A stretch of DNA of 64,000 nt from Candidatus Uhrbacteria bacterium (GTDB lineage: Bacteria; Patescibacteriota; Patescibacteriia; JACQRZ01). Made by a program: the position numbers and the translations under genes. The notes beneath the pieces are model-generated. The model saw nothing but the letters and a program-made list of their open reading frames with translations, made no database searches and was not told where the DNA came from. Where the stretch lies: the NCBI GenBank assembly GCA_016206155.1, contig JACQSC010000002.1:79473-143472 (forward strand). The letters run 5' to 3'. Shown piece after piece: positions 1,785 to 46,184 of the stretch (its first letter is position 1; each line of letters begins with the position of its first letter).

Positions 1785-2705
1785 ATGCTAGATAGAAAGA
1801 AATTCACTATGCAACCCATTGATAAGCTATGTGCCTTCATTCTTATCGCGAGCGTGCTGGTCGTCCCTCTTCCTTCTGCCGCGACGCCGTTTGAGTACGA
1901 TGTTTCCATTAGCCCCGGATCAGTAATTTTCGTGCCGCGCGATATTTATGCGGGGGAGCGGGTGCGCGTGTATGCAAACATTGCAAACCTTGGATCAAAA
2001 GACGTGACCGGATACGTTGGATTTTACCAAGGGCCAAATCTCTTGGCGCCCGTTCATCCATTTTCACTTCGCGTCGATAGCGTAACAGAAGATGTGTGGA
2101 TTGATTGGACGCCGGCAGAGGGCCGGTACAATATCATGGTAAAAGTTGATACCGATGTTTCTGATCAGAGTCCGTCAAACAACGCGTTTCTCACGCCGAT
2201 GATGCTCATTGCTAAGCGTCCGTCGCCACCGCCCCAGCCCCAGCCGACACAGCCTACCGGCGGACAGCAAAACCAAAATGGAGCCCCCACCCAAGTATCA
2301 GAGGGTGAAATTCCACAAAAAAAGGCTGAGTTGAAAAAGACCGTAACCAAGAAGCTCGCACAAACAATTGGCGAAACATTGACACCAAAGCTTCCGCTTA
2401 ATCCCCCCGCTGATCGGAATACGCAGAAGGTGTTAGAGTCCCGGCCATCGACTGGAGCGCAGACTCAGCGTGCTGACGTGCCGGTCCAAGCAGTCTCTGA
2501 GCCTCAACCGACTCCAAGCCCTGACGTATCACAACAACCCACACCAATCGCCCCGCAAGCGGTAAAAGGAGAGCGAGCGTTTGCAGACAGAGTTCCACAG
2601 ACACCACTGAAGGATTCGACGCGGCGAGCGCTTCTCGTGGGCATCCTTCTTGCAGCCGCATCGCTAGCGGCGGGCGGGTTTTTTCTTCATAAAAGTAAAG
2701 TATAG
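1785..2705 (+). CDS. secreted Pro/Gln/Thr-rich protein with a C-terminal membrane anchor, possibly with a CARDB-like beta domain
   Basis: N-terminal signal-like hydrophobic segment (LCAFILIASVLVVPLPSAA). A low-complexity PQPQPTQPTGGQQ linker follows, then a C-terminal TM (LLVGILLAAASLAAGGFF) and a basic tail. Confidence 0.55.
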   Translation: MLDRKKFTMQPIDKLCAFILIASVLVVPLPSAATPFEYDVSISPGSVIFVPRDIYAGERVRVYANIANLGSKDVTGYVGFYQGPNLLAPVHPFSLRVDSVTEDVWIDWTPAEGRYNIMVKVDTDVSDQSPSNNAFLTPMMLIAKRPSPPPQPQPTQPTGGQQNQNGAPTQVSEGEIPQKKAELKKTVTKKLAQTIGETLTPKLPLNPPADRNTQKVLESRPSTGAQTQRADVPVQAVSEPQPTPSPDVSQQPTPIAPQAVKGERAFADRVPQTPLKDSTRRALLVGILLAAASLAAGGFFLHKSKV

Positions 2706-2710
2706 TAACA

Positions 2711-3184
2711 ATGTTATTAGACTATCTTCACTCAAAATATCATCGGGAGATTGAGGATGGATGGGGAGCTCTTGAGATTGGAAACACACGAAAGGCGGAG
2801 GAGCACTTTAAAAAAGTTCTTGAACATGAGGATGACCCCTCTATGGCGCTTTCCGATTTGATCGATGCGCATAATGGGTTAGCTGCCACCGCGCGGGAGC
2901 ACAGAGATTTTTTTGATGCGTGGCGCTTGTATCGCGAGGCCGAATATCTTATTGCAAAGGAGTTCTCACCGTTGCCCCCCCATCTTTCGTGGAGCGATCC
3001 GCGAGAACGGCCGGTATTGCGCACGCTCGTTGGGCTTGCGCACACATCCTTTTTGCGCAATAATGTTGAAACGGCGCGCCGTTATTATCGGGAGGTTCTC
3101 GCGCGCGATCCAAAGGATCATCTTGGAATGAGTCGCTATGTCGCCGCGCTAGAAGCCGGTGAGACATTTCCTGATACCAATTGA
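2711..3184 (+). CDS. hypothetical protein, TPR-like helical repeat
   Basis: 157-aa ORF with good coding periodicity. The motifs (YREAEYL…, RRYYREVLARDPKD) resemble tetratricopeptide helices. Confidence 0.45.
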   Translation: MLLDYLHSKYHREIEDGWGALEIGNTRKAEEHFKKVLEHEDDPSMALSDLIDAHNGLAATAREHRDFFDAWRLYREAEYLIAKEFSPLPPHLSWSDPRERPVLRTLVGLAHTSFLRNNVETARRYYREVLARDPKDHLGMSRYVAALEAGETFPDTN

Positions 3185-3342
3185 GGAAAAGGGGGTTGAC
3201 CCCATTTCCCCTTCATTTTTTTGTATTTGAATCCTTTGCGCCTGCCTACCGCAGGCAGGCGCGCCCATTAAAAAAATTCCAATAAGATGGGGAAATGGTA
3301 GTGGTTTTGTTGGTCTGCTGTTCTCGCTCCCTTCCATCTTCT

Positions 3343-3608
3343 CCCCTTATAAGGTAAAGGGCGCAAGAACAGCAGCCCCCGTCGCTTCTGTTTGGCTGAC
3401 TAAAAAAAGCTTTGCAGTATGTATGCTTTTCTCTTACTTTGAATGACCCGGCCCGTGGCGGCTACGGGCGCACCCACTCAGTTGAGTCAAGCATACACGA
3501 TCTGTCCCGTTTCCGCCATGGGTACGCCCGTTGCAAAAGAGCAATGGATTAGAGTCGTCGCTCTCACCACAATTCAAAGCAACGGCTAAGTCGACTTAGC
3601 CGATGGCG
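3343..3608. repeat. left arm of a ~265-bp imperfect inverted repeat (partner 4759..5025)
   Basis: Reverse-complementing 4759..5025 by eye reproduces this segment with only a few mismatches, for example ccgccatggg versus ccgccgtggg. Confidence 0.85.
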
Positions 3609-3855
3609 GGGGCACGATGACGACGGTCCTTGCTTTTGCTTCATTTTCCTGTAGTATAGAAGTATCAATGACTATTGTAGAGTGGTCGTTGGGTTTGGTA
3701 TATCTCCGCCTTGGCTACATTGCCTTCTCTCTCGTTGTTGCAGCTTTGAAATTTTATCCACCAAATATGCTGGACAGCAATCATATCGTGTGCTATAGTA
3801 TCAATACTAACACCACCCACTCTGTGCCTTTGGTACACGGTGGGTTTTGTCTATT

Positions 3856-4449
3856 ATGAGCGAGAAAGAACGCGTAGCGGTTTTCATTGATGGGAGCAAT
3901 CTCTATTATAGGATGAAAGAACTTGGAATACTCAGTATATCAAAGTTCGATTATAGGGCGTTGGCTGAATTTCTCGCATTGGATCGAGACTTGGTATATG
4001 CTGGCTATTATGTCGGCGTCGTGAAAGCGAAACCAGACAATACAAAGGGTCAGGAATTGCGAACAAAACAGCAGAAGCTATTTTCCCATTTAACGTCTCC
4101 TCAACAGAATTTTGACATCAATCGAGGCGTGCTCATCAGAAGTGATAGTAAGTACCACGAAAAGGGCGTTGATGTGCGAATCGCGGTTGATCTTCTCGTA
4201 GGCGCTTTTGACAATATGTACGATACGGCAATTCTCCTTTCATCAGATTCTGACCTCGTTCCAGCCGTACAGAAGGTTACCCAGTTCAAGAAAAAGATTG
4301 AGTATGTCGGATTCTCTCATCGACCGACATATGCGCTCCAAAAAGTTGCAACACGTTCAAAATTGCTTCTCAGGGAAGAGCTCATTGCGTTTCAAGTCAA
4401 GTTACAGAACGATGAGCTAGAAAAACAAAATTTTGAGATCTATCTATGA
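3856..4449 (+). CDS. NYN-domain (LabA/PIN-like) protein, predicted RNase
   Basis: The N-terminus VAVFIDGSNLYY and the later acidic cluster AILLSSDSDLV match the NYN/LabA-like fold. ATG at 3856; a TTG at 3847 is also possible. The stop overlaps the next start (ATGA). Confidence 0.7.
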   Translation: MSEKERVAVFIDGSNLYYRMKELGILSISKFDYRALAEFLALDRDLVYAGYYVGVVKAKPDNTKGQELRTKQQKLFSHLTSPQQNFDINRGVLIRSDSKYHEKGVDVRIAVDLLVGAFDNMYDTAILLSSDSDLVPAVQKVTQFKKKIEYVGFSHRPTYALQKVATRSKLLLREELIAFQVKLQNDELEKQNFEIYL

Positions 4450-4781
4450 TAACTGCCCTCTCATTTTTTCTTGGTCTTATCATTGGCGCGCTTGTTGGCT
4501 ATTTCATTACGCGTAAAACCCGTACAAATAGTGGAATTGCTGCAATTGTAGAACACCGTAGTATCAAAAAGCAAAAACGAAAAGAGCAGATCATAGCTCT
4601 CGTACAACAAAAAGGAACGATAGCAAACAACGACGTTGAGAAGTTCCTCAACGTATCCGACGCCACGGCAACAAATTATATTCAAGAACTTGAAGAGGAA
4701 GGAAAGATCAAACAAATCGGCGAGCGAGGGCGGTTTGTAACCTACCGACTGGCGACCGCGCCATCGGCCAAGTCGACTTAG
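4446..4781 (+). CDS. small membrane-anchored winged-helix DNA-binding protein
   Basis: N-terminal TM (ALSFFLGLIIGALVGYFI). The C-terminal segment IIALVQQKGTIANNDVEKFLNVSDATATNYIQELEEEGKI is a typical wHTH. Translationally coupled to the NYN gene. Confidence 0.55.
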   Translation: MITALSFFLGLIIGALVGYFITRKTRTNSGIAAIVEHRSIKKQKRKEQIIALVQQKGTIANNDVEKFLNVSDATATNYIQELEEEGKIKQIGERGRFVTYRLATAPSAKST

Positions 4782-5025
4782 CCATTGCTTTTAATTGTGG
4801 TGAGAGCGACGACTCTAATCCATTGCTCTTTTGCAACGGGCGTACCCACGGCGGAAACGGGACAGATCGTGTATGCTTGACTCAACTGAGTGGGTGCGCC
4901 CGGAGCCGCCACGGGCCGTGTCATTCAAAGTAAGAGAAAAGCATACATACTGCAAAGCTTTTTTTAGTCAGCCAAACAGAAGCGGCGGGGGCTGCTGTTC
5001 TTGCGTCCCTTACCTTTACGCTCTT
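4759..5025. repeat. right arm of the ~265-bp inverted repeat (partner 3343..3608)
   Basis: Reverse-complement match to 3343..3608. It overlaps the last codons of the wHTH gene and ends about 15 bp before the hrcA -35 box. Confidence 0.85.
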
Positions 5026-5039
5026 GAGTATAGGAACCC

Positions 5040-5068
5040 TTGACAAAGGTTTTTTATTTTTTTATACT
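5040..5068 (+). promoter_or_regulatory. sigma70-type promoter of the hrcA operon (TTGACA, 17-bp spacer, TATACT)
   Basis: TTGACA at 5040-5045 and TATACT at 5063-5068 with a 17-nt spacer. The CIRCE operator follows immediately. Confidence 0.7.
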
Positions 5069-5095
5069 TTAGCAATCTCAGATATTGAGTGCTAA
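5069..5095 (+). promoter_or_regulatory. CIRCE operator (HrcA binding site)
   Basis: TTAGCAATC-N9-GAGTGCTAA, one mismatch from the consensus TTAGCACTC-N9-GAGTGCTAA. It lies between the -10 box and the hrcA start. Confidence 0.85.
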
Positions 5096-5099
5096 ATGA

Positions 5100-5774
5100 A
5101 TGGATGAACGAAAATTGCTTCTTGTCACGCACGTTGTTGACGCATATATTTCCACCGCGCATCCGGTTGGCTCGCAGGTTCTTGCTTCGCGCTATCGCTT
5201 GTCATGGAGTTCGGCGACAATTCGCAACGTACTCTCTCATCTTGAAGAAGAGGGGTATATGTTCCAACCCTATACCTCTGCGGGGCGCGTTCCGACGCAT
5301 TTGGGCTATCGTCTTTATCTCGAACACGTGCATGTAGCGCGCCTCAATCCTGCCCTGGAGCGATCACTGTCAAGCATGGCAGAACAGATGGCTTCCTTTG
5401 ATGAGCTCCGCGAGCTCTGTCGTATCCTCTCGCGCCTGACACAAGAGGTCGTCTTTACGGTCACACGTCTTGGATCGTTTACAACCGGGACACGATTCAT
5501 CACCCGGAAGCCCGAAGCGGAAGATCCGGCATTTATGCGAGATATTACCAATGCCATCGATGCGCTTGAGGATATATGCGCCGCGCTCGAGACGGAAATA
5601 GGCAGCATTACTCAATGTATCGGAGATGGGCAGACGTTTGGAGGTGCGTGCAGTGTTCTGCTCGTGCGCGTTCCATTTCAGCGCTCTACGGTTATGATTG
5701 GCATCCTTGGTCCGCTGCGCATGAATTATCATAAAAATATTGCCCTTCTTCAATCCCTCATCCCTAAACCCTAA
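5100..5774 (+). CDS. hrcA: heat-inducible transcription repressor HrcA (short form, 224 aa)
   Basis: N-terminal wHTH (LLLVTHVVDAYISTAHPVGSQVLASRY…LEEEGYMFQPYTSAGRVPT) is typical of HrcA. It is first gene of the hrcA-grpE-dnaK-dnaJ arrangement. It is shorter than the usual ~340 aa. Confidence 0.8.
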   Translation: MDERKLLLVTHVVDAYISTAHPVGSQVLASRYRLSWSSATIRNVLSHLEEEGYMFQPYTSAGRVPTHLGYRLYLEHVHVARLNPALERSLSSMAEQMASFDELRELCRILSRLTQEVVFTVTRLGSFTTGTRFITRKPEAEDPAFMRDITNAIDALEDICAALETEIGSITQCIGDGQTFGGACSVLLVRVPFQRSTVMIGILGPLRMNYHKNIALLQSLIPKP

Positions 5775-5796
5775 ACCCTAAACCCTAAACCCTAAA
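5762..5796. repeat. (CCCTAAA)x5 heptamer tandem repeat spanning the hrcA stop codon
   Basis: ccctaaa repeated five times. The hrcA TAA stop at 5772-5774 lies inside the tract. Confidence 0.9.
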
Positions 5797-5812
5797 CCCC
5801 AATCCCTCCTCT

Positions 5813-6379
5813 ATGAGCGACGAACAGACACAATCCACAGACGATAACGAAACACTGAAGCATGAGCTTGAAACATGCAAGAAGCAGTGTGAGGAATATC
5901 TCAACGGTTGGAAACGTGCAAAGGCCGACTACATTAACTATAAAAATGAAACTGAGAAGCGACGCGATGAGCTTGCGGGCATGGCTCTTATGACCTCAGC
6001 CGCGCAGTTTATCCCACCGCTCGATAATTTAAAAATAGCATTTATCCAGCTGCCGGATGAACTGAAGGAATCTGATTGGGTGAGGGGCATAGAGCAGATT
6101 CGCAAGCAGCTTGTTGAAATCATGAAAGGTTTGGGGGTTGAGGAGTTTGCAGAACCGGTTGTCGGCGCCGCATTTGATCCGGCAAAATTTTACGCCGTTG
6201 GCGAAGAGCGCCGCGATGATTTTGAGGACGGTGTGATTACACAGGAAGTAAGCCCGGGGTACACATTTCGTGGAAGCCTCATGGTTCCAGCGAAGGTTAT
6301 CGTTAATAAGAATCAAGAATCTAGAATTAAGAATCAAGAATCAGAGGGTGACACAGAGAAGAATGACCTTAATTCTTAA
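5813..6379 (+). CDS. grpE: nucleotide exchange factor GrpE
   Basis: Coiled-coil N-terminus followed by a GrpE C-terminal beta domain (…GYTFRGSLMVPAKVIV). Position between hrcA and dnaK. The C-terminal tail NKNQESRIKNQESEG is encoded by AATCAAG-like heptamers. Confidence 0.9.
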   Translation: MSDEQTQSTDDNETLKHELETCKKQCEEYLNGWKRAKADYINYKNETEKRRDELAGMALMTSAAQFIPPLDNLKIAFIQLPDELKESDWVRGIEQIRKQLVEIMKGLGVEEFAEPVVGAAFDPAKFYAVGEERRDDFEDGVITQEVSPGYTFRGSLMVPAKVIVNKNQESRIKNQESEGDTEKNDLNS

Positions 6380-6437
6380 TTCATTATTCATAATTCTTTA
6401 AATTTAAGAAGCGCTAACATATTAATCAAAATATACT

Positions 6438-8354
6438 ATGTCGAAGATACTTGGCATTGACTTGGGTACAACGAATTCCTGCATGGCAGTCATCGAAGCA
6501 GGCGAGCCCAAGGTACTGGAAAACAAGGAGGGCAACCGCACAACGCCATCCGTTGTCGCAATCAGCAAGTCGGGAGAGCGGCTGGTTGGGCTTCTGGCAA
6601 AGCGGCAGGCAGTGACGAATCCGGAGCACACCATCTATTCCGTGAAGCGCCTTATCGGCCGTCGGTTTAGCGACTCAGAAGTTCAGCGAGACGTATCGCT
6701 TATGCCGTTCAAGATTGTCCAATCAGGTGATGGCGTAAAGGTGGTCATGCAGGGCAAAGAATACACGCCGCAGGAAATTTCTGCGATGGTATTGCAGAAA
6801 ATGAAAGCGGATGCCGAGGAACGTCTGGGAGAAAAGATTACAGAGGCGGTCATCACGGTGCCGGCGTATTTCGATGATTCACAGCGACAGGCGACAAAAG
6901 ATGCGGGAAAGATTGCCGGTCTTGACGTGAAACGCATTATCAATGAGCCGACCGCAGCTGCGCTTGCGTACGGATTTAATAAGAAAAAGGACGAGAAGAT
7001 TGTTGTCTATGACCTTGGTGGCGGCACGTTCGATGTATCTGTTCTCGAGGTTGCCGATGATACGGTTGAAGTGAAGGCAACCAACGGCGACACGCATCTT
7101 GGCGGTGATGACTTTGACCAGCGCATTATCACGTGGATTATCGATGAGTTCAAGAAAGAAAGCGGGATTGATCTCTCAAAAGACCAGCTTGCCCTGCAGC
7201 GTTTGAAAGAGGGGGCAGAGAAGGCAAAGCACGAACTTTCAACCGCAATGGAGAGTGAGATTAACCAGCCGTTCATCACCTCGGATGCCGCGGGTCCAAA
7301 GCATCTGGTGTTAAAATTGACGCGCGCAAAATTGGAAGAACTGGTATCGGCGCTCGTTGATAAAACGCTTGAGCCATGCCGAAGAGCGCTGTCGGATGCG
7401 CAACTCCAAGCATCCCAGATCAATGAGATTATTCTTGTCGGGGGAATGACACGCATGCCCCTGGTTCAACAAACAGTCGAGAAGTTTTTCGGACAGAAAC
7501 CAAATGTTTCAGTGAATCCCGATGAAGTTGTTGCGGTCGGAGCAGCGGTGCAGGCGGGAGTGTTGCAGGGAGAAGTGAAGGATGTACTCCTGCTTGACGT
7601 GACACCTCTTTCCGTCGGTCTTGAAACATTGGGAGGTGTAATGACAAAATTGATCGAGCGCAACACAACCATTCCAACGTCGAAGTCACAGATTTTTTCT
7701 ACCGCGGCTGACAATCAAACCTCCGTGGAGGTTCATGTATTGCAGGGAGAGCGGGAGATGGCAGGCGACAACAAGTCGCTTGGACGATTCATACTCGACG
7801 GTATTCCTCCCGCGCCGCGCGGCGTTCCTCAGGTTGAAGTGTCATTTGACATCGACGCGAACGGCATTCTTAATGTTTCCGCAAAAGACAAGGCATCGGG
7901 AAAAGAGCAAAAAATTACCATCACCGCATCAACATCACTATCGAAGGATGAGGTGGAGCGCATGCGCAAAGACGCTGAATTGCACGCAGAAGATGATCAT
8001 AAAAAGCGCGAGACAATCGACGTGAAGAACAATGCGGAGAGCGTGATTTATCAGACCGAGAAGACGCTTAAGGAATATGCCGAGAAGATTCCAGCTGATG
8101 TAAAGACAGAAATTGAGGGAAAGATTGAGGCGCTAAAAAAAGTAAAAGACTCAGACGATACGCAAAGCATAAAAGCAGCGCTTGAGGATGTGAATCAGAT
8201 CGTCTCAAAGATTGGCAGCGCGCTCTATCAACAGCCGGGCGCAACAGAACAAGCGGGGCAACCAGCAGAAAATCAGGACGCAAGCGGAGAGGCATCCGGT
8301 ACGAAGGCAGATGAGCAGGGACCGATTGACGCCGACTTTGAGAAGAAAGATTAA
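6438..8354 (+). CDS. dnaK: chaperone DnaK (Hsp70)
   Basis: Hsp70 signatures are present: [34 protein letters not shown], and a C-terminal lid. Confidence 0.97.
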
Positions 8355-8356
8355 AA

Positions 8357-9448
8357 ATGAAAAAAGACTACTATTCAACGCTAGGCGTTGCAAAAGGCGC
8401 GAGCAGTGACGATATTAAGAAGGCGTTTCGTAAACTTGCCCATCAACACCATCCAGACAAAGAGGGCGGCGATGAGAAGAAGTTTAAGGAAGCAAATGAG
8501 GCGTATCAAGTGCTCTCCGATCCCGAGAAGAGAAAAAAATACGATCAATTCGGCGCAGATTACGACAAGTATGCAAACCATGGCGGGCATTCCTGGGAGG
8601 ATTTTGCGCGCCAATCTGGCTTTGGCTTTTCGGGTGGCGCTGAGTTTGACCTCAACGACCTCGGCGACATGGTTGGCGAGATGTTTGGCTTTGGCGGACG
8701 CCGTCGCGCGGGACGCGCCAGTCACGGTTCACATCTTCAGATAGAACTCACCATTGAATTCCGTGAGGCGGCATTCGGCGTGAAGAAGGATATACGCATA
8801 ACGCATCAGGTTGTATGTGCGCGGTGCGCAGGCAACGGCGCAGAGCCGGGAACGCGTATTGTGTCGTGCGCGACATGCAAGGGGGCTGGACAGGTTGTTA
8901 CACTCAAACAAACATTCTTGGGGAGCATGCAGGCGGCAGCGCCATGTTCCGCGTGCCACGCATCAGGCAAAACCGCGGAGAAACCATGTAAAGAATGCAA
9001 GGGGGTCGGCGCTGTAAGAAAAGAGGAGGCCGTCTCTGTTCATGTTCCTGCGGGCATTGATCATGGCGAAACAATTCGTTTGCAAGGGCAGGGTGATGCC
9101 GGCCCATCCGGCGCTCTTCCGGGTGACCTCTATATTACGCTTCGCGTCCGTCCCGATGCCGCTTTCGAGCGTGATGGCGCCGATCTTTATAAAAGAGTTC
9201 CTATTCGCATCTCTGAAAGCGTTCTTGGCGCAACAGTCGCGGTTGAGACATTGGACGGTAAGGTCGACATGAAAGTGCCGCCAGGCACCATATCGGGGAC
9301 GAAGTTCCGCCTTGCGCATCTTGGTGTGCCATACTTGAATCGAAGCGGGCGAGGGAACTTGATCGTCAGCGTTGACGTTGTTCCGCCAAAAACACTTTCC
9401 AAAAAACAGCGAGATCTTTTGGAACAACTCAAGAAAGAGGGCATCTAG
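8357..9448 (+). CDS. dnaJ: co-chaperone DnaJ
   Basis: J-domain (DYYSTLGV…HPDK), a Gly/Phe-rich linker, and four CxxCxGxG zinc-finger repeats, with a C-terminal domain. Confidence 0.95.
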   Translation: MKKDYYSTLGVAKGASSDDIKKAFRKLAHQHHPDKEGGDEKKFKEANEAYQVLSDPEKRKKYDQFGADYDKYANHGGHSWEDFARQSGFGFSGGAEFDLNDLGDMVGEMFGFGGRRRAGRASHGSHLQIELTIEFREAAFGVKKDIRITHQVVCARCAGNGAEPGTRIVSCATCKGAGQVVTLKQTFLGSMQAAAPCSACHASGKTAEKPCKECKGVGAVRKEEAVSVHVPAGIDHGETIRLQGQGDAGPSGALPGDLYITLRVRPDAAFERDGADLYKRVPIRISESVLGATVAVETLDGKVDMKVPPGTISGTKFRLAHLGVPYLNRSGRGNLIVSVDVVPPKTLSKKQRDLLEQLKKEGI

Positions 9449-10524: not shown

Positions 10525-13047
10525 ATGGAGGACATCACTCAATCATTTTCAGATTTGCTTGCAGAGAATCCTTTTTTTGGTTTGTTCCTTGTTCTGATTA
10601 TCATTGGTGCGCTTGGATGGGTCGGTATCCTCGCGCTTCGCTATGCGCTCCACAAGTGGTTTGAAATACCACTCTCTTTAAACAAGAAGGTTTTGCAGAT
10701 TCTCGTTCCGAAAGAGTCTGCAAAGAAGGAGGAAGAAGATAAGTCATCAAAAAAAGATTACAAAGAGCTGATAGCCGTCATGGAGAGCTTTTATTCGGGA
10801 CTGGGACACCTCAAGCCAAAGTTACGATTTTTTGCTTTTTTTATCGGCCGCGAGGATCATATTTCCCTTGAGATTGCCGCGATTGAAGGATTGGTAAAAT
10901 TTTTTATCGTTGTTCCCGCGCACATGCAGCAGTTTTTTGAGCAGCAGCTGCACGCCCAATATCCATCGGCGAAGGTGGAAGAGGTTGAGGATTATAATCT
11001 GTTTCGTCCGCGCGGAGTTATCATCGGCGCGCCGATTGTCGCAACCAAGGCGTCCATGTTTCGTATCCGCACGTACAAGACCATGGACTCCGATCCGCTC
11101 AACGCTCTGACCAACGCCATGAGCAAGGTGGAATCAACGCAGGGCGCGGCGATTCAGCTCGTGATCCGCACCGCGCGAAGAGGATGGGGGCGGCGCGGCG
11201 TTGAGATCGCGCGCAAAGTCCAAAAGGGAAAATCATTAAAAGCGGCCATGCAGGGACCGCTCGCTGGTTTCGTTGACGGGCTGGCGCACACATTGATCAA
11301 AGGTACGTCTGATGCGGTTTTCTCACCTGACAAAAAGTCGCCGCCCATGAAAGGAACGGAGGATCCCTATCCGCGACACTCACCGATGGAGCAGGAGCTT
11401 ATCAAATCGATCGAGGAAAAAGCATCAAAGGGCGGCTTTGAGACGAGTATGCGCGTAGTGACATCGGCAGATGATGAGCGCGTTGCCAAGATGCATTTGC
11501 ATAGTATTGCCAATGCGTTTTCCCAATATCTCGCGCCCGAGTCCGGTATTACACTGCGAAAGAAAAAGTATTTTTATTTCAAAGGATCGTTGATAAAAAG
11601 TTTTATCTATCGCAGGTTTGATCATCGGCGGAAATTTATTTTTTCAACCGAGGAACTTGCCAGCCTGTATCACTTTCCGTTGAGCACAACCGAAACGCCA
11701 AATATACAATGGCTGCACGCGCGCACAGCGCCTCCCCCCGTTGATATCCCACAAGAGGGAATTATTCTTGGTGAAAGCATCTATCGGGGCAAGCGCACCC
11801 TTATTCGCATGAAGCGGGAGGATCGCCGCCGTCACATGTACGTGGTCGGTACGACAGGTGTTGGCAAGACGACGATCATGGAAAACATGATTATTCAGGA
11901 TATTCAGAACGGCGAGGGGTGCGGATTCATCGATCCTCACGGCGAGGCCGTCAAACATATCTTGGAGAATATTCCACCGGAACGCGCCGACGATGTCGTG
12001 TTGTTTGATCCATCGGATACCGATCGGCCAGTTGGCCTCAATATGCTTCAGGCCGACACGCCAGCTGAGACTGATTTTGCCATTCAGGAGATGATTGCGA
12101 TTTTCTATAAATTGGTGACAGATCCCTCCATGATCGGGCCGATGTTTGAGCACTACATGAGGAACGCCATGCTGACCCTTATGTCCGATCCAGTCCATCC
12201 GGGAACAATCGTCGAGATTCCTCGCATTCTTACCGATCGCGACTACCAGACCTACAAATTGCAAACGGTGACCGATCCTATTGTGCGGGCGTTTTGGGAA
12301 AAGGAGCTTCCTCAGACCGCCGGACAGACAAAAGGGGAGATGTTGCCTTACCTTGTATCAAAAATTGGACGGTTTATCGAGAACGTCATGATGCGCAATA
12401 TTATTGGGCAGGAGCATTCCGGTTTTGATTTCCGCGAGGTGATGGATCGTAAAAAAATTCTTCTGGTCAATCTCTCAAAGGGACAAGTCGGAGAGATAAA
12501 CAGCAATCTCTTGGGGCTCGTGGTGGTCTCCAAGCTGCAGATGGCGGCGCTTGCGCGCGCCGATATGCCCTCAGAAAAGCGTCACGATTTTTTTCTCTAC
12601 ATTGATGAGTTTCAAAATTTTATCACCGATAGCATTGCAACGATTCTTTCAGAAGCCCGAAAATATCGGCTTAATCTTGTGCTCGGCCACCAGTATATTG
12701 GACAATTGGTGCCCAAACAGGGTGACACCAAGGTTCGCGATGCCGTGTTTGGCAACGTTGGGACCATTTGCGCATATCGTGTCGGTGTCGATGACGCGGA
12801 ATTGATGGCAAAACAGCTTGCGCCGGTGTTCAATGAGTATGACGTCATCAATACGGAGAAGTACACCGCCAACCTTCGCCTTCTTATCGACAATACAGCG
12901 GCGCGCCCTTTTAGTATGCGTACTTTTCCTCCATTGGAGGGAGATGTGAATATTGCCGAGGCAATTCGGCAGCTTGCGCGCCTTAAATACGGACGCGACC
13001 GCGCGTTGGTTGAGGCCGAGATCCTCGAGCGCTCTCAGCTTGGGTAG
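10525..13047 (+). CDS. TraD/TrwB/VirD4-family coupling-protein-like ATPase with a long N-terminal transmembrane extension
   Basis: N-terminal TM (FFGLFLVLIIIGALGWVGILAL). Walker A motif GTTGVGKTT and Walker B motif FFLYIDEFQNF, followed by HQYIGQL. The architecture matches T4SS coupling-protein and TraG-D_C ATPases. Confidence 0.75.
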   Translation: MEDITQSFSDLLAENPFFGLFLVLIIIGALGWVGILALRYALHKWFEIPLSLNKKVLQILVPKESAKKEEEDKSSKKDYKELIAVMESFYSGLGHLKPKLRFFAFFIGREDHISLEIAAIEGLVKFFIVVPAHMQQFFEQQLHAQYPSAKVEEVEDYNLFRPRGVIIGAPIVATKASMFRIRTYKTMDSDPLNALTNAMSKVESTQGAAIQLVIRTARRGWGRRGVEIARKVQKGKSLKAAMQGPLAGFVDGLAHTLIKGTSDAVFSPDKKSPPMKGTEDPYPRHSPMEQELIKSIEEKASKGGFETSMRVVTSADDERVAKMHLHSIANAFSQYLAPESGITLRKKKYFYFKGSLIKSFIYRRFDHRRKFIFSTEELASLYHFPLSTTETPNIQWLHARTAPPPVDIPQEGIILGESIYRGKRTLIRMKREDRRRHMYVVGTTGVGKTTIMENMIIQDIQNGEGCGFIDPHGEAVKHILENIPPERADDVVLFDPSDTDRPVGLNMLQADTPAETDFAIQEMIAIFYKLVTDPSMIGPMFEHYMRNAMLTLMSDPVHPGTIVEIPRILTDRDYQTYKLQTVTDPIVRAFWEKELPQTAGQTKGEMLPYLVSKIGRFIENVMMRNIIGQEHSGFDFREVMDRKKILLVNLSKGQVGEINSNLLGLVVVSKLQMAALARADMPSEKRHDFFLYIDEFQNFITDSIATILSEARKYRLNLVLGHQYIGQLVPKQGDTKVRDAVFGNVGTICAYRVGVDDAELMAKQLAPVFNEYDVINTEKYTANLRLLIDNTAARPFSMRTFPPLEGDVNIAEAIRQLARLKYGRDRALVEAEILERSQLG

Positions 13048-14991: not shown

Positions 14992-15007
14992 AATTTGATA
15001 TTATAGA

Positions 15008-15078
15008 TGCGGGATGGTGCAACGGCAGCACGCTTGGCTCTGAACCAAGTAATCGTGGTTCGAATCCACGTCCCGCAG
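15008..15078 (+). tRNA. tRNA-Gln (anticodon CTG), CCA not encoded
   Basis: Manual cloverleaf fold: acceptor TGCGGGA/TCCCGCA, D-stem GTGC/GCAC, anticodon stem CTTGG/CCAAG with loop CTCTGAA, T-arm CGTGG-TTCGAAT-CCACG. The U1-A72 pair is typical of tRNA-Gln. Confidence 0.85.
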
Positions 15079-15916
15079 GAAATTACTACAAAATGCATTT
15101 TCGCTCCCTTCAGGAGTATTTGAGTTTGAAATTAAATCCCGCCCAGAATCCAATTTTGAATTGAATTCATAAACAAAATTCCAAGGGGCATTGAAATCCA
15201 CCGCCACTTTCCGCTCCGCGAGGAGGCGGTTCGAGCCGTGTTTTTTAAGAAAATCTTTTTTTGCGAAAAGATTTTCTTCCAAAGCGACATTTTCCGCTTG
15301 GTGAGCAGCTAAAATGAACTTTCTTGAAAGTTCGAGCCACGCGTTGCCCTTTCGCTCAAAATCTTTCAATTTCTGCTCAAGATCCATTTTTTGAGAAAGC
15401 ACTTTGTTCTTCTTTGCCGTGTATTCTTCACGGGAGATAGCTTGCTCCAAATGGGCATCGAGCAGAGTGTCCAGCTTGTCGTCATACACCTTAATCTCAT
15501 TCTTGGTTTTTTGAGCGAATAGGGCATCAGATTGGGCGGTGTCCGATTGATCTTTTTCTAGTTGTTCGAGCATCTCGTCCGTCCAATCTTTTGGCAGAGA
15601 AACTTTTTTGATCATCTCGTTTATCTGTTCGGTGAGAAGCTCTTCGCGAATATATCGTTGAGAACATTTTGTGCCATCCTTTTTCTTCGTGCATCGGTAA
15701 TATGCGTGTCCTTTCTTAGACTCGGCAGTAATTGAACAGCCACACTCTCCGCACGAAAAAAGTCCACGAAGGGGAAAAAGCTTCTCGCCCCGTTTCTTTG
15801 GGCAGGCCTTGCTTGTAAGCACTGTCTGCACACTATCAAAAAGTTTCTTTGACACGCATGGCTCATGAGTTCCAGAAAAAAGCTCGCCGTTGGAAAGGAA
15901 GGCACCGTAAGTCAAA

Positions 15917-15963
15917 ATAATGGGGTCAGGAGCCATTAAATTAATGGCTCCTGACCCCATTAT
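15917..15963. repeat. perfect palindrome AATGGGGTCAGGAGCCATTAA-a-TTAATGGCTCCTGACCCCATT, followed by (CATTATTTC)x3
   Basis: The arms were verified by reverse complement. It shares the AATGGGGTCAGG terminus with the copies at 13051, 24291 and 56081. It sits at the truncated 5' end of the recombinase remnant. Confidence 0.85.
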
Positions 15964-16101
15964 TTCCATTATTTCCCATTATTTCATGACCACATTATCC
16001 TATGGACCAGTGCAAGATATAGACATACTCATTTTGACGCTGTATGATGGTTTTAATGTCATACCCGTCCGCAATTTAACGCATACGAACACGAATGCAT
16101 T

Positions 16102-20326: not shown

Positions 20327-21381
20327 ATGTTTTTCTTGTTGGAACCGGACTCATCGGATCTACACTTCTCACACAGATTCGTGAGAATCAATCACGGTTG
20401 AAGGCGGAGGGAGTCGAGTTAAGCGTGTGCGGGATTGCAAACGCAGAGCGCATGCTTCTTGACGCAAACGGCATTGCGCTCGATCGGTGGCAGGAGCGTC
20501 TTGCGCAGGACGGCATCTCGCTTGATCTCGCCGCATATATCTCAGCAAGCGGATCGTGGAGGATGCCACGCAGTGTTTTTGTTGATTGCACCGCCAGTCA
20601 GGATGTTGCCGATGCATATTGCAGTATTGCGCGTACCGGAGCGGCGATTGTTGCGGCAAACAAAAAGGCGCAGTCCGGTTCGCTCGATGCGTACGAAACA
20701 TTATGGAAGACGCTTCATGAGACAAGAACATCATTTTTGTACGAGACCAATGTGGGCGCGGCGCTGCCGGTGATCAGCGCCCTCAAAGATCTGCTTGTGA
20801 CAGGTGATCGTGTTGAAAAAATTGAGGCGATTCTTTCGGGTACCTTGAGCTATATCTTCAACACATATTCGGATTCTCGCAGTCCATTTTCTGATATCGT
20901 CCGTGAGGCAAAAGAAAAAGGCTACACAGAGCCCGATCCGCGTGACGACCTTTCAGGATTGGATGTTGCACGAAAAGCCGTGATTCTGGCACGAGAGATT
21001 GGGCAGAAGATTTCAGTAGAGGACATCGCACGCGCTCCGCTCCTTTCCGACACGTGCATGAGCGCCGGATCGGTTGATGATTTTTTTTCAGCACTGGAAT
21101 CAATGAACGCGGAATGGGAAGAAAAGAAGCAATCGGCAAAAAGTCGCGGAAGCGTGTTGCGCTACATTGCAACAATTGATCAAAGCGGAGCGCGTATTTC
21201 ACTCGAGGAAGTAAATCAAACACACGCCTTTTATTCTCTGTCGGGAAGTGATAATATCGTTGCATTCACAACAGCTCGTTACTGTGATACTCCGCTTGTG
21301 ATTAAAGGTCCAGGCGCCGGCGCACAGGTGACTGCCGGGGGCGTTTTTGCGGATATTCTTAAAACAGGGTATAGGGTTTAG
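20323..21381 (+). CDS. hom: homoserine dehydrogenase
   Basis: NAD-binding N-terminus (VFLVGTGLIGS) and the HSDH catalytic signature (…EAKEKGYTEPDPRDDLSGLDVARKAVILAREIG). Overlaps the lysC stop. Confidence 0.88.
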   Translation: MNVFLVGTGLIGSTLLTQIRENQSRLKAEGVELSVCGIANAERMLLDANGIALDRWQERLAQDGISLDLAAYISASGSWRMPRSVFVDCTASQDVADAYCSIARTGAAIVAANKKAQSGSLDAYETLWKTLHETRTSFLYETNVGAALPVISALKDLLVTGDRVEKIEAILSGTLSYIFNTYSDSRSPFSDIVREAKEKGYTEPDPRDDLSGLDVARKAVILAREIGQKISVEDIARAPLLSDTCMSAGSVDDFFSALESMNAEWEEKKQSAKSRGSVLRYIATIDQSGARISLEEVNQTHAFYSLSGSDNIVAFTTARYCDTPLVIKGPGAGAQVTAGGVFADILKTGYRV

Positions 21382-21388
21382 GGTTTAG
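21367..21388. repeat. (TTTAGGG)~3 heptamer tract, reverse orientation of the CCCTAAA tracts, spanning the hom stop codon
   Basis: gggtatagggtttagggtttag. The hom TAG stop at 21379-21381 lies inside the tract. Confidence 0.85.
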
Positions 21389-22540: not shown

Positions 22541-22622
22541 GAAGAATTACGAATTACGAATTAAGCATAAAAAGCAACAGATTTAAGCTCCTTAATTCTT
22601 AATTCTTGATTCGTAATTCTTC
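22541..22622. repeat. imperfect inverted repeat built from GAATTAC/GAATTAA heptamers (hairpin between asd and thrB)
   Basis: gaagaattacgaattacgaattaag …35 nt… cttaattcttaattcttgattcgtaattcttc. The arms are reverse-complementary apart from one heptamer variant. Confidence 0.75.
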
Positions 22623-30932: not shown

Positions 30933-31005
30933 CAAACGGCTTCTGGCGTATTATTGTAGGTATGGTATGCTATCAATGTATAAACCGGTTTATACATTGA
31001 CGAAA

Positions 31006-31030
31006 CCCTAAACCCTAAACCCTAAACCCT
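31006..31030. repeat. (CCCTAAA)x3+CCCT tract abutting the start codon of the YtxH-like gene
   Basis: ccctaaaccctaaaccctaaaccct immediately followed by ATG at 31031. Confidence 0.9.
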
Positions 31031-31381
31031 ATGAAAGGAACACTTAAAGGAGCGGCGCTTGGCGCGCTCGTAGCATCCGCCGCAGCGCTTCTCCTCGCTC
31101 CAAAGTCAGGAAGAAAAACACGCGCTGACTTAAAAAAATTGCTTGATACCGCATCGACAGATTTGCAAAAAAAAGCAAAAAAAATACAGAATCTCTCACA
31201 AGCGCAATATGAAGAGCTCTTTCTTCATTCACTTGCCCAAGCCGCGCGAAAAAAAGAAGAAATCGTTGATGTGCTTGGCGATGTTGCCGCAGTGCTGAAG
31301 AAGGGATGGAGCGATGTGCGCCAGGAGCTAAAAACCTCAAAGCCGGCAAAGACTACGGGAGGTGCAAAAAAGAAAAAGTAG
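31031..31381 (+). CDS. YtxH-like (DUF948) stress protein
   Basis: GAALGALVASAAALLLAPKSGRKTRADLKK matches the YtxH N-terminal motif. Lys-rich helical remainder. Confidence 0.7.
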   Translation: MKGTLKGAALGALVASAAALLLAPKSGRKTRADLKKLLDTASTDLQKKAKKIQNLSQAQYEELFLHSLAQAARKKEEIVDVLGDVAAVLKKGWSDVRQELKTSKPAKTTGGAKKKK

Positions 31382-45627: not shown

Positions 45628-46173
45628 ATGGCACGATCAAAACAAAGCAAACAGGATATACTTGAGAAGCTAGCGGATGCTCTAGGAAGGAGCGTTTCCG
45701 TAGTATTCGCAAGCGTAAAGGGCCTCAAGGTGTATGAGTTGGAGGAGCTTCGAAAAACGCTTCGAACCGAGGGTAACGAGTGTTTTGTCGCAAAAAAAAC
45801 ACTTCTCTCCCGCGCATTTTCCACCATGGAAACTAAGTTTGACTTCAGAGGTATGGATGGAGAGGTTGCAGCGGTTTTCGGATATACTGATCAAGTTGCG
45901 CCAGCGCGTGTACTGAGTGCGTTTGGCAAGACCCACGAGAAACTGACTATTCTTGCCGGTTTCATCAAGGATGAGGCAAGTGGCGTACAGTCATTGACAT
46001 CATCAGCCATTGCAGCGCTTGCGCTTTTGCCCTCCCGTGATGAACTGCGCGCCCGGGTTGTTGGATCACTGGCGGCACCGTTGCGTAATTGTGTTGGTGT
46101 TCTCCAGGGACCGCTTCGCGCATTCGCTCAAGTACTTAATGCATACGCACAAACCCTAAACCCTAAACCCTAA
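45628..46173 (+). CDS. rplJ: 50S ribosomal protein L10
   Basis: [39 protein letters not shown]… matches the L10 pattern and is followed by rplL. The ~320-bp upstream spacer likely contains the L10 leader. Confidence 0.9.
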
Positions 46174-46178
46174 ACCCT
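46154..46178. repeat. (CCCTAAA)x3+CCCT tract spanning the rplJ stop in the rplJ-rplL spacer
   Basis: ccctaaaccctaaaccctaaaccct. The rplJ TAA at 46171-73 lies inside the tract, and rplL starts 7 nt after it. Confidence 0.9.
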
Positions 46179-46184
46179 ATTTGT

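Follow-up and report, generated by a model that had tools for sequence, protein, structure and literature searches.

Variable cargo bounded by imperfect palindromes is known from integron cassettes, and short segments of promoter and gene lying between inverted repeats are known from the invertible DNA of Hin/Gin/Cin, shufflons and Bacteroides invertons. Unrelated defence-type genes are swapped between conserved framing elements in P2/P4-like prophages and satellites, and short extragenic palindromes stand in inverted pairs around a gene in repetitive extragenic palindromes (REP), bacterial interspersed mosaic elements (BIME) and REPtrons. Here we describe a locus of Candidatus Uhrbacteria bacterium (Patescibacteria) that resembles each of these in part. 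It lies in a stretch of 64,000 nt (assembly GCA_016206155.1, contig JACQSC010000002.1, positions 79,473-143,472 of the forward strand), hereafter the window, whose numbering is used throughout. The locus is an inserted block at 3192-5034, just upstream of hrcA, in which a NYN nuclease gene and a membrane-anchored winged helix-turn-helix (wHTH) gene are enclosed by two long inverted arms. On balance, this block is probably a horizontally acquired accessory cassette of a hairpin-delimited, Patescibacteria-wide family, in which the border module has been duplicated in inverted orientation. Patescibacteria have tiny genomes, and the ways in which they gain and rearrange accessory and defence genes are little known; the locus offers a clean example with empty sites in relatives, and it led us to a recurrent architecture of hairpin, cargo, wHTH gene and hairpin.

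An inserted block with inverted arms at the hrcA promoter

The block was delimited by comparison with the three closest HrcA homologues on usable contigs (82-86% identical), which belong to the related Uhrbacteria contigs L111, L112 and L113. In these contigs the same 300-aa gene and TPR gene lead straight into hrcA-grpE-dnaK-dnaJ, ~100 nt separating the TPR gene from hrcA. By blastn they match the window as far as 3153-3159 and then again from 5035, and the window at ~3192-5034 is therefore extra DNA (1843 nt, or 1.84 kb) that is missing from all three relatives. The core of the cassette has a GC content of 42.7%, as against 49-52% in the adjacent genes. At the insertion junctions there is an imperfect 12-nt similarity between 3181-3192 (TTGAGGAAAAGG) and 5024-5035 (TTGAGTATAGGA), which is weak (8/12), and none is flush with the arms. 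Neither a recombinase nor a tRNA is present at the ends of the block, which sets it apart, at this site, from an integrative element of the large-serine-recombinase type. The hrcA promoter (TTGACA-17-TATACT, 5040-5068) and its CIRCE operator (5070-5096) follow the right end of the insertion.

Repeat search and alignment place the left arm at 3351-3611 and the right arm at 4756-5016. They are 261 nt long each, lie 1144 nt apart and are complementary at 251 of their 261 positions (96%, ten mismatches); a 27-mer from the arm has exactly two occurrences in the window and none in 100 shuffles. Logan contigs from six SRR121134xx runs reproduce the junctions of the flank with the left arm, of both arms with the core and of the right arm with hrcA, at 99.1-100% identity. 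Since these assemblies are independent, the repeat is no assembly artefact, and a chimera of assembly or of multiple displacement amplification is ruled out as its source. The Logan contigs break off within the arms, which is the unavoidable behaviour of a de Bruijn graph at a repeat. In contig L007 (sample SRR12113428), position 4849 of the right arm carries the left-arm allele, which could reflect exchange or gene conversion between the arms or plain polymorphism.

Read from its inner to its outer end, each arm is composed of the tail of the wHTH gene (its last 8 codons), a palindrome that we call the border hairpin, a spacer of ~180 nt and the edge of a conserved non-coding element (CE), of which it takes in the first ~50 nt met. 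In the left arm the wHTH tail and the palindrome lie on the opposite strand, and the similarity ends sharply 10 nt inward of the palindrome. No residual DNA or protein similarity was found inside the arm boundary, and the idea that the arm is a relic of a second, opposite wHTH gene is not supported.

The CE is complete on the left side only (3192-3409), where it has two helices and shares ~55 nt with the outer end of the left arm. It is ~67-70% identical to segments of two unrelated metagenome contigs, L029 (7071-7296) and L042 (4087-4283), and its profile is recovered by nhmmer with an E-value of 5.6e-60. RNAalifold finds six base pairs with compensatory changes in the two helices, one of which, CE hairpin A (3312-3378), has a 22-bp stem and a 23-nt loop and is conserved in L029 with a compensatory change from G-C to C-G. 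The left arm begins in the loop of this hairpin, at 3351. The truncated second copy of the CE, on the minus strand at 4958-5009, consists of the last ~52 positions (profile 173-224; nhmmer E 3.1e-10) and likewise ends in the loop of hairpin A. When a spurious open reading frame (ORF) spanning arm and CE was compared by phmmer with 1.84 billion representatives, its CE part alone was matched, in one other Uhrbacteria metagenome-assembled genome; the spurious ORF P0310 (MBI4239986.1) found there points to a copy of the CE in a fourth organism.

Outside the locus the arms recur in none of the collections searched. In the window, blastn detects no third copy; among GTDB species genomes, a scan with arm 20-mers returns only ten matches, none of which extends past 20-22 nt, as expected by chance; and a 24-mer scan of the JGI metagenomes has no match. 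Nor is there a match in IMG/VR, searched with the CE pattern and the wHTH protein, or in phage and plasmid records, searched by blastn with the whole insertion, and tblastx of the arm against all loci retrieves the same organism only. Against Rfam, the locus and 18 related loci yield tRNAs only at the gathering threshold and otherwise chance-level matches up to E<=10, so that the arms, the CE and the hairpins are all unmatched.

The initial annotation of this DNA had placed two near-perfect reverse-complement segments at 3343-3608 and 4759-5025, had tentatively read them as bounding a mobile or invertible cassette inserted at the hrcA promoter or as convergent copies of a structured RNA, and had named an empty site joining their outer ends, recurrence of the arms elsewhere and a match to a known RNA family as the observations to look for. 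The repeat is real, with coordinates that were off by 3-9 nt. The insertion at the hrcA promoter is likewise confirmed by the empty sites in the three relatives, and the notion of a mobile cassette is right in substance; the part that does not stand concerns the arms, which are not the termini of the inserted DNA. The breakpoints of the empty sites (~3159/5035) do not fall at the arm ends: on the left the inserted DNA continues for ~160 nt past the arm, and on the right 18 nt (5017-5034) remain between the arm and the restart of empty-site homology. Recurrence and an RNA family were both looked for in vain, as set out above. The arms are neither transposon ends nor a known RNA, and they are best read as an inverted duplication of the border module, that is, of wHTH tail, hairpin, spacer and CE edge. 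The right arm, which had been thought to stop about 15 bp before the hrcA -35 box, stops 23 nt before it. A foreign operon at this distance from the -35 box of the sole promoter of the heat-shock regulon may alter hrcA-dnaK expression.

Border hairpins and the wHTH cassette family

The border hairpin sits at the inner end of each arm. It follows the consensus AAC-GGCTNA...TNAGCC-GTT, with a stem that can be written AACGGCTNA...TNAGCCGTT. The left copy (3580-3605) is CAAC-GGCTAAGTCGACTTAGCC-GATG, whose minus strand reads the wHTH tail ...PPPSAKST*, and the right copy (4762-4787) is CATC-GGCCAAGTCGACTTAGCC-ATTG, which encodes SAKST*. The palindrome GGCCAAGTCGACTTAGCC thus doubles as the codons for SAKST plus the stop, and the wHTH gene (4446-4781, plus strand) ends inside the right arm, with its last 8 codons and stop in the arm and its hairpin. 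In the whole window the motif occurs at two sites only, 3584 and 4766, which are the inner ends of the arms. The 111-aa protein combines a hydrophobic N-terminal helix with a winged helix that matches Pfam HTH_DeoR/HTH_24.

A scan of the JGI metagenomes with the wHTH alignment finds at least 535 relatives of this protein, and 80 loci of the family were fetched for analysis. The two closest homologues (69-72% identity, on Logan contigs L026-L028) have the same tail and palindrome at the gene end; distant members are devoid of the SAKST tail (family alignment A4). The hairpin GGCTNA...TNAGCC lies within -40..+150 of the stop in 46 of the 94 wHTH genes with enough downstream sequence, and its density near the stop is 2.6 per kb, compared with 0.097 per kb elsewhere in the same loci; further variants outside the search pattern were found by eye. 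Beyond the bases fixed by the search pattern, the flanking AAC and GTT pair with each other in 87-94% of the 93 distinct hairpins; the inner stems and loops vary freely, with loops of 2 to >20 nt. In at least 15 loci, paired hairpins bracket 0.9-5.9 kb that include the wHTH gene, mostly at the 3' end.

The DNA between such hairpins is diverse. The cargo includes a Panacea-like protein with a partner, small membrane proteins, large restriction-like or ATPase proteins, and an XRE regulator with a PIN-like protein, and the neighbours include zeta toxin genes, a type I restriction system and the reverse transcriptase of a diversity-generating retroelement (DGR). Cargo swapping can be seen directly by comparing L034 (1489-5982) with L047 (2225-6000), whose flanks can be aligned as far as the final base of the upstream hairpin, and again from the wHTH start codon onward. 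Between these two points lie unrelated segments of 4.5 kb and 3.7 kb, which encode a 1024-aa protein and two others in L034 and proteins of 826 aa and 379 aa in L047. These loci constitute a cargo-exchange frame. The arrangement of hairpin, variable cargo, membrane wHTH gene and hairpin is undescribed in the RNA, protein-family and defence libraries that we consulted, and a literature search for gene cassettes, inverted repeats, hairpins and serine recombinases in Patescibacteria or the candidate phyla radiation returned nothing relevant.

Two members of the family carry further repeats or retroelements. In L029, perfect 54-nt direct repeats (7379-7432 and 8822-8875) surround a zeta-toxin gene and a 67-aa gene directly after the CE, and look like another cassette-type duplication. 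Among long contigs, L026 (4569-6336) has the closest wHTH homologue (69%), which lies directly 3' of a DGR consisting of bAvd and a 333-aa reverse transcriptase, and the contig ends 7 nt past the wHTH stop in two samples, which suggests a repeat there also. Because of this neighbour, a DGR template/variable-repeat origin of the differences between the two arms was considered and was rejected, the ten differences not being adenine-specific.

Runs of A and T flank many of the family hairpins, by no means all, and the hairpins may act as terminator or insulator structures. They may also be binding sites of the wHTH protein, with AACGGCTAAG/CTTAGCCGTT as the candidate duplex; the predicted recognition helix of the protein, VSDATATNYL, and the AACGGCT base of the stem are equally invariant. 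If the hairpins are sites of recombination or protein binding, they would represent a new way of arranging mobile cargo in the Patescibacteria radiation and would provide a simple sequence tag for finding variable genes.

In the window, the cargo of the cassette is a NYN/LabA-type nuclease gene (3856-4449, plus strand, 197 aa). The protein contains the motifs FIDGSN, GVDVRIAVD and SSDSD, has the conserved acidic motifs of the family and matches Pfam NYN (PF01936) with 80.6 bits against a cutoff of 24.2 (E 2e-22). Its gene overlaps the wHTH gene by an ATGA start/stop. The two genes had already been annotated as a NYN gene and a translationally coupled membrane wHTH gene between the arms, and both assignments are upheld; the two-component toxin/regulator look then remarked on does not extend to a conserved pair, since NYN homologues occur without the wHTH gene and wHTH homologues have many different partners. 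At E<=1e-10 there are 1356 NYN homologues, the nearest non-identical one at 61% identity, and the gene is single-copy in the window. Homologues of 54-61% identity on long contigs lie between tRNA synthetases, beside heliorhodopsin or in sugar-modification clusters, and neither inverted repeats nor a wHTH partner surround them there. The best match in the defence library is the PADLOC profile HEC-09 (E 1.3e-24, residues 5-181 on positions 2-184 of 203). HEC-09 is a single-gene candidate that was defined by its embedding in helicase-methylase-ATPase (Hma) systems and gave no phage protection when tested (10.1101/2024.01.29.577857). No Hma genes flank the NYN gene in the window.

A dedicated pair of NYN toxin and wHTH antitoxin is not supported by these data, and a regulator-plus-effector operon is possible. 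The wider proposal that the cargo is a toxin-antitoxin or abortive-infection pair, with the NYN RNase as toxin and the wHTH protein as antitoxin or regulator, is compatible with an inverted duplication of the border module, and we regard it as conceivable, if doubtful. The ATGA coupling speaks for such a pair; the NYN homologues of 54-61% identity without a wHTH neighbour speak against it. The wHTH protein resembles the wHTH domains of AbiEi, CasR and SoFic, and its homologues adjoin zeta toxins, Fic, Panacea-type and restriction genes, but these partners are highly variable, and the two genes are not conserved as neighbours across homologues, as those of a type II toxin-antitoxin pair would be. 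The match to HEC-09, which points to defence, has to be set against the failure of that candidate to protect from phage.

Upstream of the NYN gene, the cassette leader (3612-3855, plus strand) contains a promoter-like site at 3771-3799 (TGGACA-17-TATAGT with TG) and, just before the NYN start, a stem-loop at 3810-3850 (fold z -2.8) followed by UUUUG; an 80-aa ORF in the leader has no Pfam match. The last 48 nt of the leader, with the stable stem-loop, are 83% identical to the leader directly 5' of the wHTH homologue in L028, and because of this match the NYN gene may have been placed between a pre-existing leader and the wHTH gene. Two similar motifs of the form TATAG..TATCAAT.ACTA, at 3650-3675 and 3790-3812, were missed by the repeat search (seed 6); the second overlaps the predicted -10 box, and they could be operators or duplicated promoter elements.

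Origin of the repeat and competing readings

A link to serine recombinases is provided by L042, a relative's contig with 74-87% nucleotide identity in the shared genes. L042 carries genes syntenic with the window at 58.3-60.0 kb, followed by a tRNA (2168-2240) and a large serine recombinase resembling XisF and Ccr (2241-3764). Next come the CE, oriented as in the window, a spacer of ~90 nt, a hairpin, six genes that include the wHTH gene, and a second hairpin; the two hairpins form a 28-nt inverted repeat. The order CE, spacer, hairpin is therefore collinear in the window and in L042, where it lies beside the serine recombinase at tRNA-Gln, and it is mirrored in L029, which has the wHTH gene, one ORF, a hairpin, a spacer and the CE on the other strand. 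The window holds the L042-type and the L029-type junctions at once, and the inverted repeat is in essence this combination. At 15001-15969 (minus strand) the window has a large serine recombinase gene in truncated form, 87% identical at the nucleotide level to the intact one of L042. It is 5'-truncated and devoid of the catalytic N-terminal domain, and its frame runs antisense through tRNA-Gln(CTG) at 15008-15078. This segment is probably a remnant of a tRNA-integrated element, and the element family was thus once present in this genome.

In L042 itself, 2355-2394 and 3849-3888 mark a degenerate inverted copy of a part of the recombinase's 3' coding sequence upstream of the gene, with protein similarity reaching ~4005. 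Most of the recombinase gene is bracketed by an old inverted repeat.

Taking together what is observed directly, namely the insertion, the composition of the arms, the recurrence, enrichment and pairing of the hairpins, the swapping of cargo in hairpin-wHTH frames and the linkage of CE and hairpin beside a serine recombinase, we propose the following history for the block. The cassette would have landed in the ~40 nt that separate the TPR gene from the hrcA promoter, as a unit of a family that comprises variable cargo (here the HEC-09-type NYN/LabA nuclease), a membrane wHTH gene that is mostly last, and border hairpins, of which one is placed directly at the wHTH stop and another, in many cases, upstream of the cargo. 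Such cassettes may move by recombination at or beside the hairpins, and their source would probably be elements integrated at tRNA-Gln that have a large serine recombinase beside the CE-hairpin module, as in L042. The 261-nt repeat could stem from a single event, either a strand switch or recombination between palindromic hairpins, in which the outer flank was copied in reverse; such an event would account for a repeat that begins at one hairpin and stops within the loop of a different one. A repeat of this length would permit RecA-type inversion of the 1144-bp core, which it is not known to cause, and a flip would keep the wHTH frame intact. The NYN-wHTH operon would be read from its own promoter-like site in the leader toward hrcA.

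Several observations weigh against this proposal. No recombinase or transposase lies in or beside the inserted block, and the sole serine recombinase of the 64-kb window is the truncated one, 10 kb away. The CE occurs in only four organisms and is not a general partner of the cassettes, and the hairpin could be conserved merely as a co-inherited terminator. The interior of the arm (3410-3579) has no homologue in any collection searched. In all other loci the paired hairpins share just 23-45 nt, and a similarity of 261 nt is confined to the window; the long repeat is a one-off, and its origin is a matter of conjecture.

It is also imaginable, if rather unlikely, that the hairpins and the membrane wHTH protein together make up an undescribed cassette-exchange (docking) system of Patescibacteria, integron-like in function and devoid of an integron integrase. 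In that case defence-type cargo would be swapped between frames, and the 261-bp repeat would be a side product of recombination at these palindromes, or else an invertible variant of it.

We consider it improbable that the block is a programmed invertible switch, in which a recombinase acting at the hairpins, or homologous recombination at the arms, flips the 1144-bp core and turns the operon toward or away from hrcA. The repeats are inverted and have palindromic sites at their inner ends, but the loops of the family hairpins, at 2 to >20 nt, are unlike the fixed-spacer crossover sites of serine invertases, and the repeats of known invertons measure ~15-35 bp. A serine recombinase of the same element family exists; here it is the truncated gene, 10 kb off and without its catalytic N-terminus, and the window holds no intact invertase. 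Both arms encode the wHTH tail, and after a flip the reading frame would end in it as before; the wHTH cassette is oriented away from the CE in the window and in L042, and toward it in L029. The flipped orientation is found in no assembly, however, nor could it be, as short-read contigs stop within the arms. The left-arm allele at 4849 in one sample is compatible with exchange between the arms, and the ten fixed differences argue against frequent exchange.

Very improbable, in our judgement, is a non-autonomous transposon, MITE-like (miniature inverted-repeat transposable element) or composite, whose terminal inverted repeats would have carried the NYN and wHTH genes into the hrcA promoter region. 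Compared with its relatives the locus does contain inserted DNA, and long near-identical inverted repeats surround a cargo without a transposase, but the inserted DNA overshoots them by the whole CE on the left and by the 18-nt remainder on the right, and neither the window nor the genome, metagenome, virus, phage and plasmid collections named above contain another copy. The weak similarity at the insertion junctions would fit a transposon. To our knowledge, terminal inverted repeats of 261 bp are atypical for bacterial insertion sequences or MITEs.

That each arm is the gene for, or a 3' untranslated region with, a structured RNA of ~260 nt in two convergent copies seems slightly less probable still: both strands fold somewhat better than shuffles (z -2.6), though equally well, the outer ~50 nt belong to the CE with its compensatory changes, though the right copy has a CE fragment only, and three of the ten arm differences are G-U-compatible on the inward-reading strand, though they are ordinary transitions, while no promoter-like site lies inside the arms, Rfam offers no family at either threshold and an interior without homologues permits no covariation test.

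Elsewhere in the window, heptamer arrays of the plant-telomere-like unit CCCTAAA/AAACCCT occur at 5755-5807, 21366-21386, 31003-31031 and 46151-46179, and a 14-mer of the unit has 12 matches where 0.01 would be expected. The gap between hrcA and grpE, which is only ~10 nt in L111, is taken up by the first of these arrays, which also extends over the end of hrcA. Other heptamer arrays consist of AAGAATC (6308-6343) and CTTAATT (6368-6398 and 22591-22621). At 10525-13047 lies the gene for an 840-aa ATPase whose orthologue in L111 has domains of TrwB/type IV secretion coupling proteins (PF10412; PF02534, weak); because the gene is syntenic beside the dnaK operon in relatives, it is probably not part of a mobile element.

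Comparison with known systems

Like integron cassettes, the family consists of variable, often promoter-poor cargo bounded by imperfect palindromes, with similar sites on neighbouring units, and like attC its sites combine a conserved base (AAC...GTT here, RYYYAAC...GTTRRRY in attC) with a variable centre. The differences are substantial. The present hairpins measure 25-50 nt, compared with 57-141 nt for attC, and have the conserved core GGCTNA/TNAGCC; their base, (A/C)AAC...GTT(T/G), has flanks that do not fit RYYYAAC/GTTRRRY. Neither an IntI integrase nor an attI site was found, and no ORF of this kind lies within 9 kb of the locus; a conserved wHTH gene stands beside the site instead, and no ordered array of many cassettes was seen.

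Invertible segments share with the locus the inverted repeats around a short segment of promoter and gene, as well as repeats that include the 3' end of a gene, by which a flip would preserve the reading frame. They differ in that the repeats here are ten times longer than known recombinase sites, have no adjacent invertase and are known from one orientation. REP/BIME elements and REPtrons, in which genes of REP-associated tyrosine transposases (RAYT) are flanked by inverted REPs, likewise place short conserved extragenic palindromes in inverted pairs around a gene; the present motif is tied to one gene family and comes without a RAYT/HUH transposase, in two copies per 64 kb as opposed to hundreds.

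With the cargo hotspots of P2/P4-like prophages and satellites the family has in common that unrelated defence-type cargo is swapped between conserved framing elements, as between L034 and L047. The family's own frame is made up of a hairpin plus a small membrane wHTH gene rather than phage genes, its hosts are Patescibacteria, and no phage context was found. As for the cargo of the window, the NYN protein agrees with HEC-09 in its full-length profile match and in the presence of the NYN aspartate motifs, and it differs in its setting, the gene being coupled here to a wHTH gene within a hairpin-bounded cassette.

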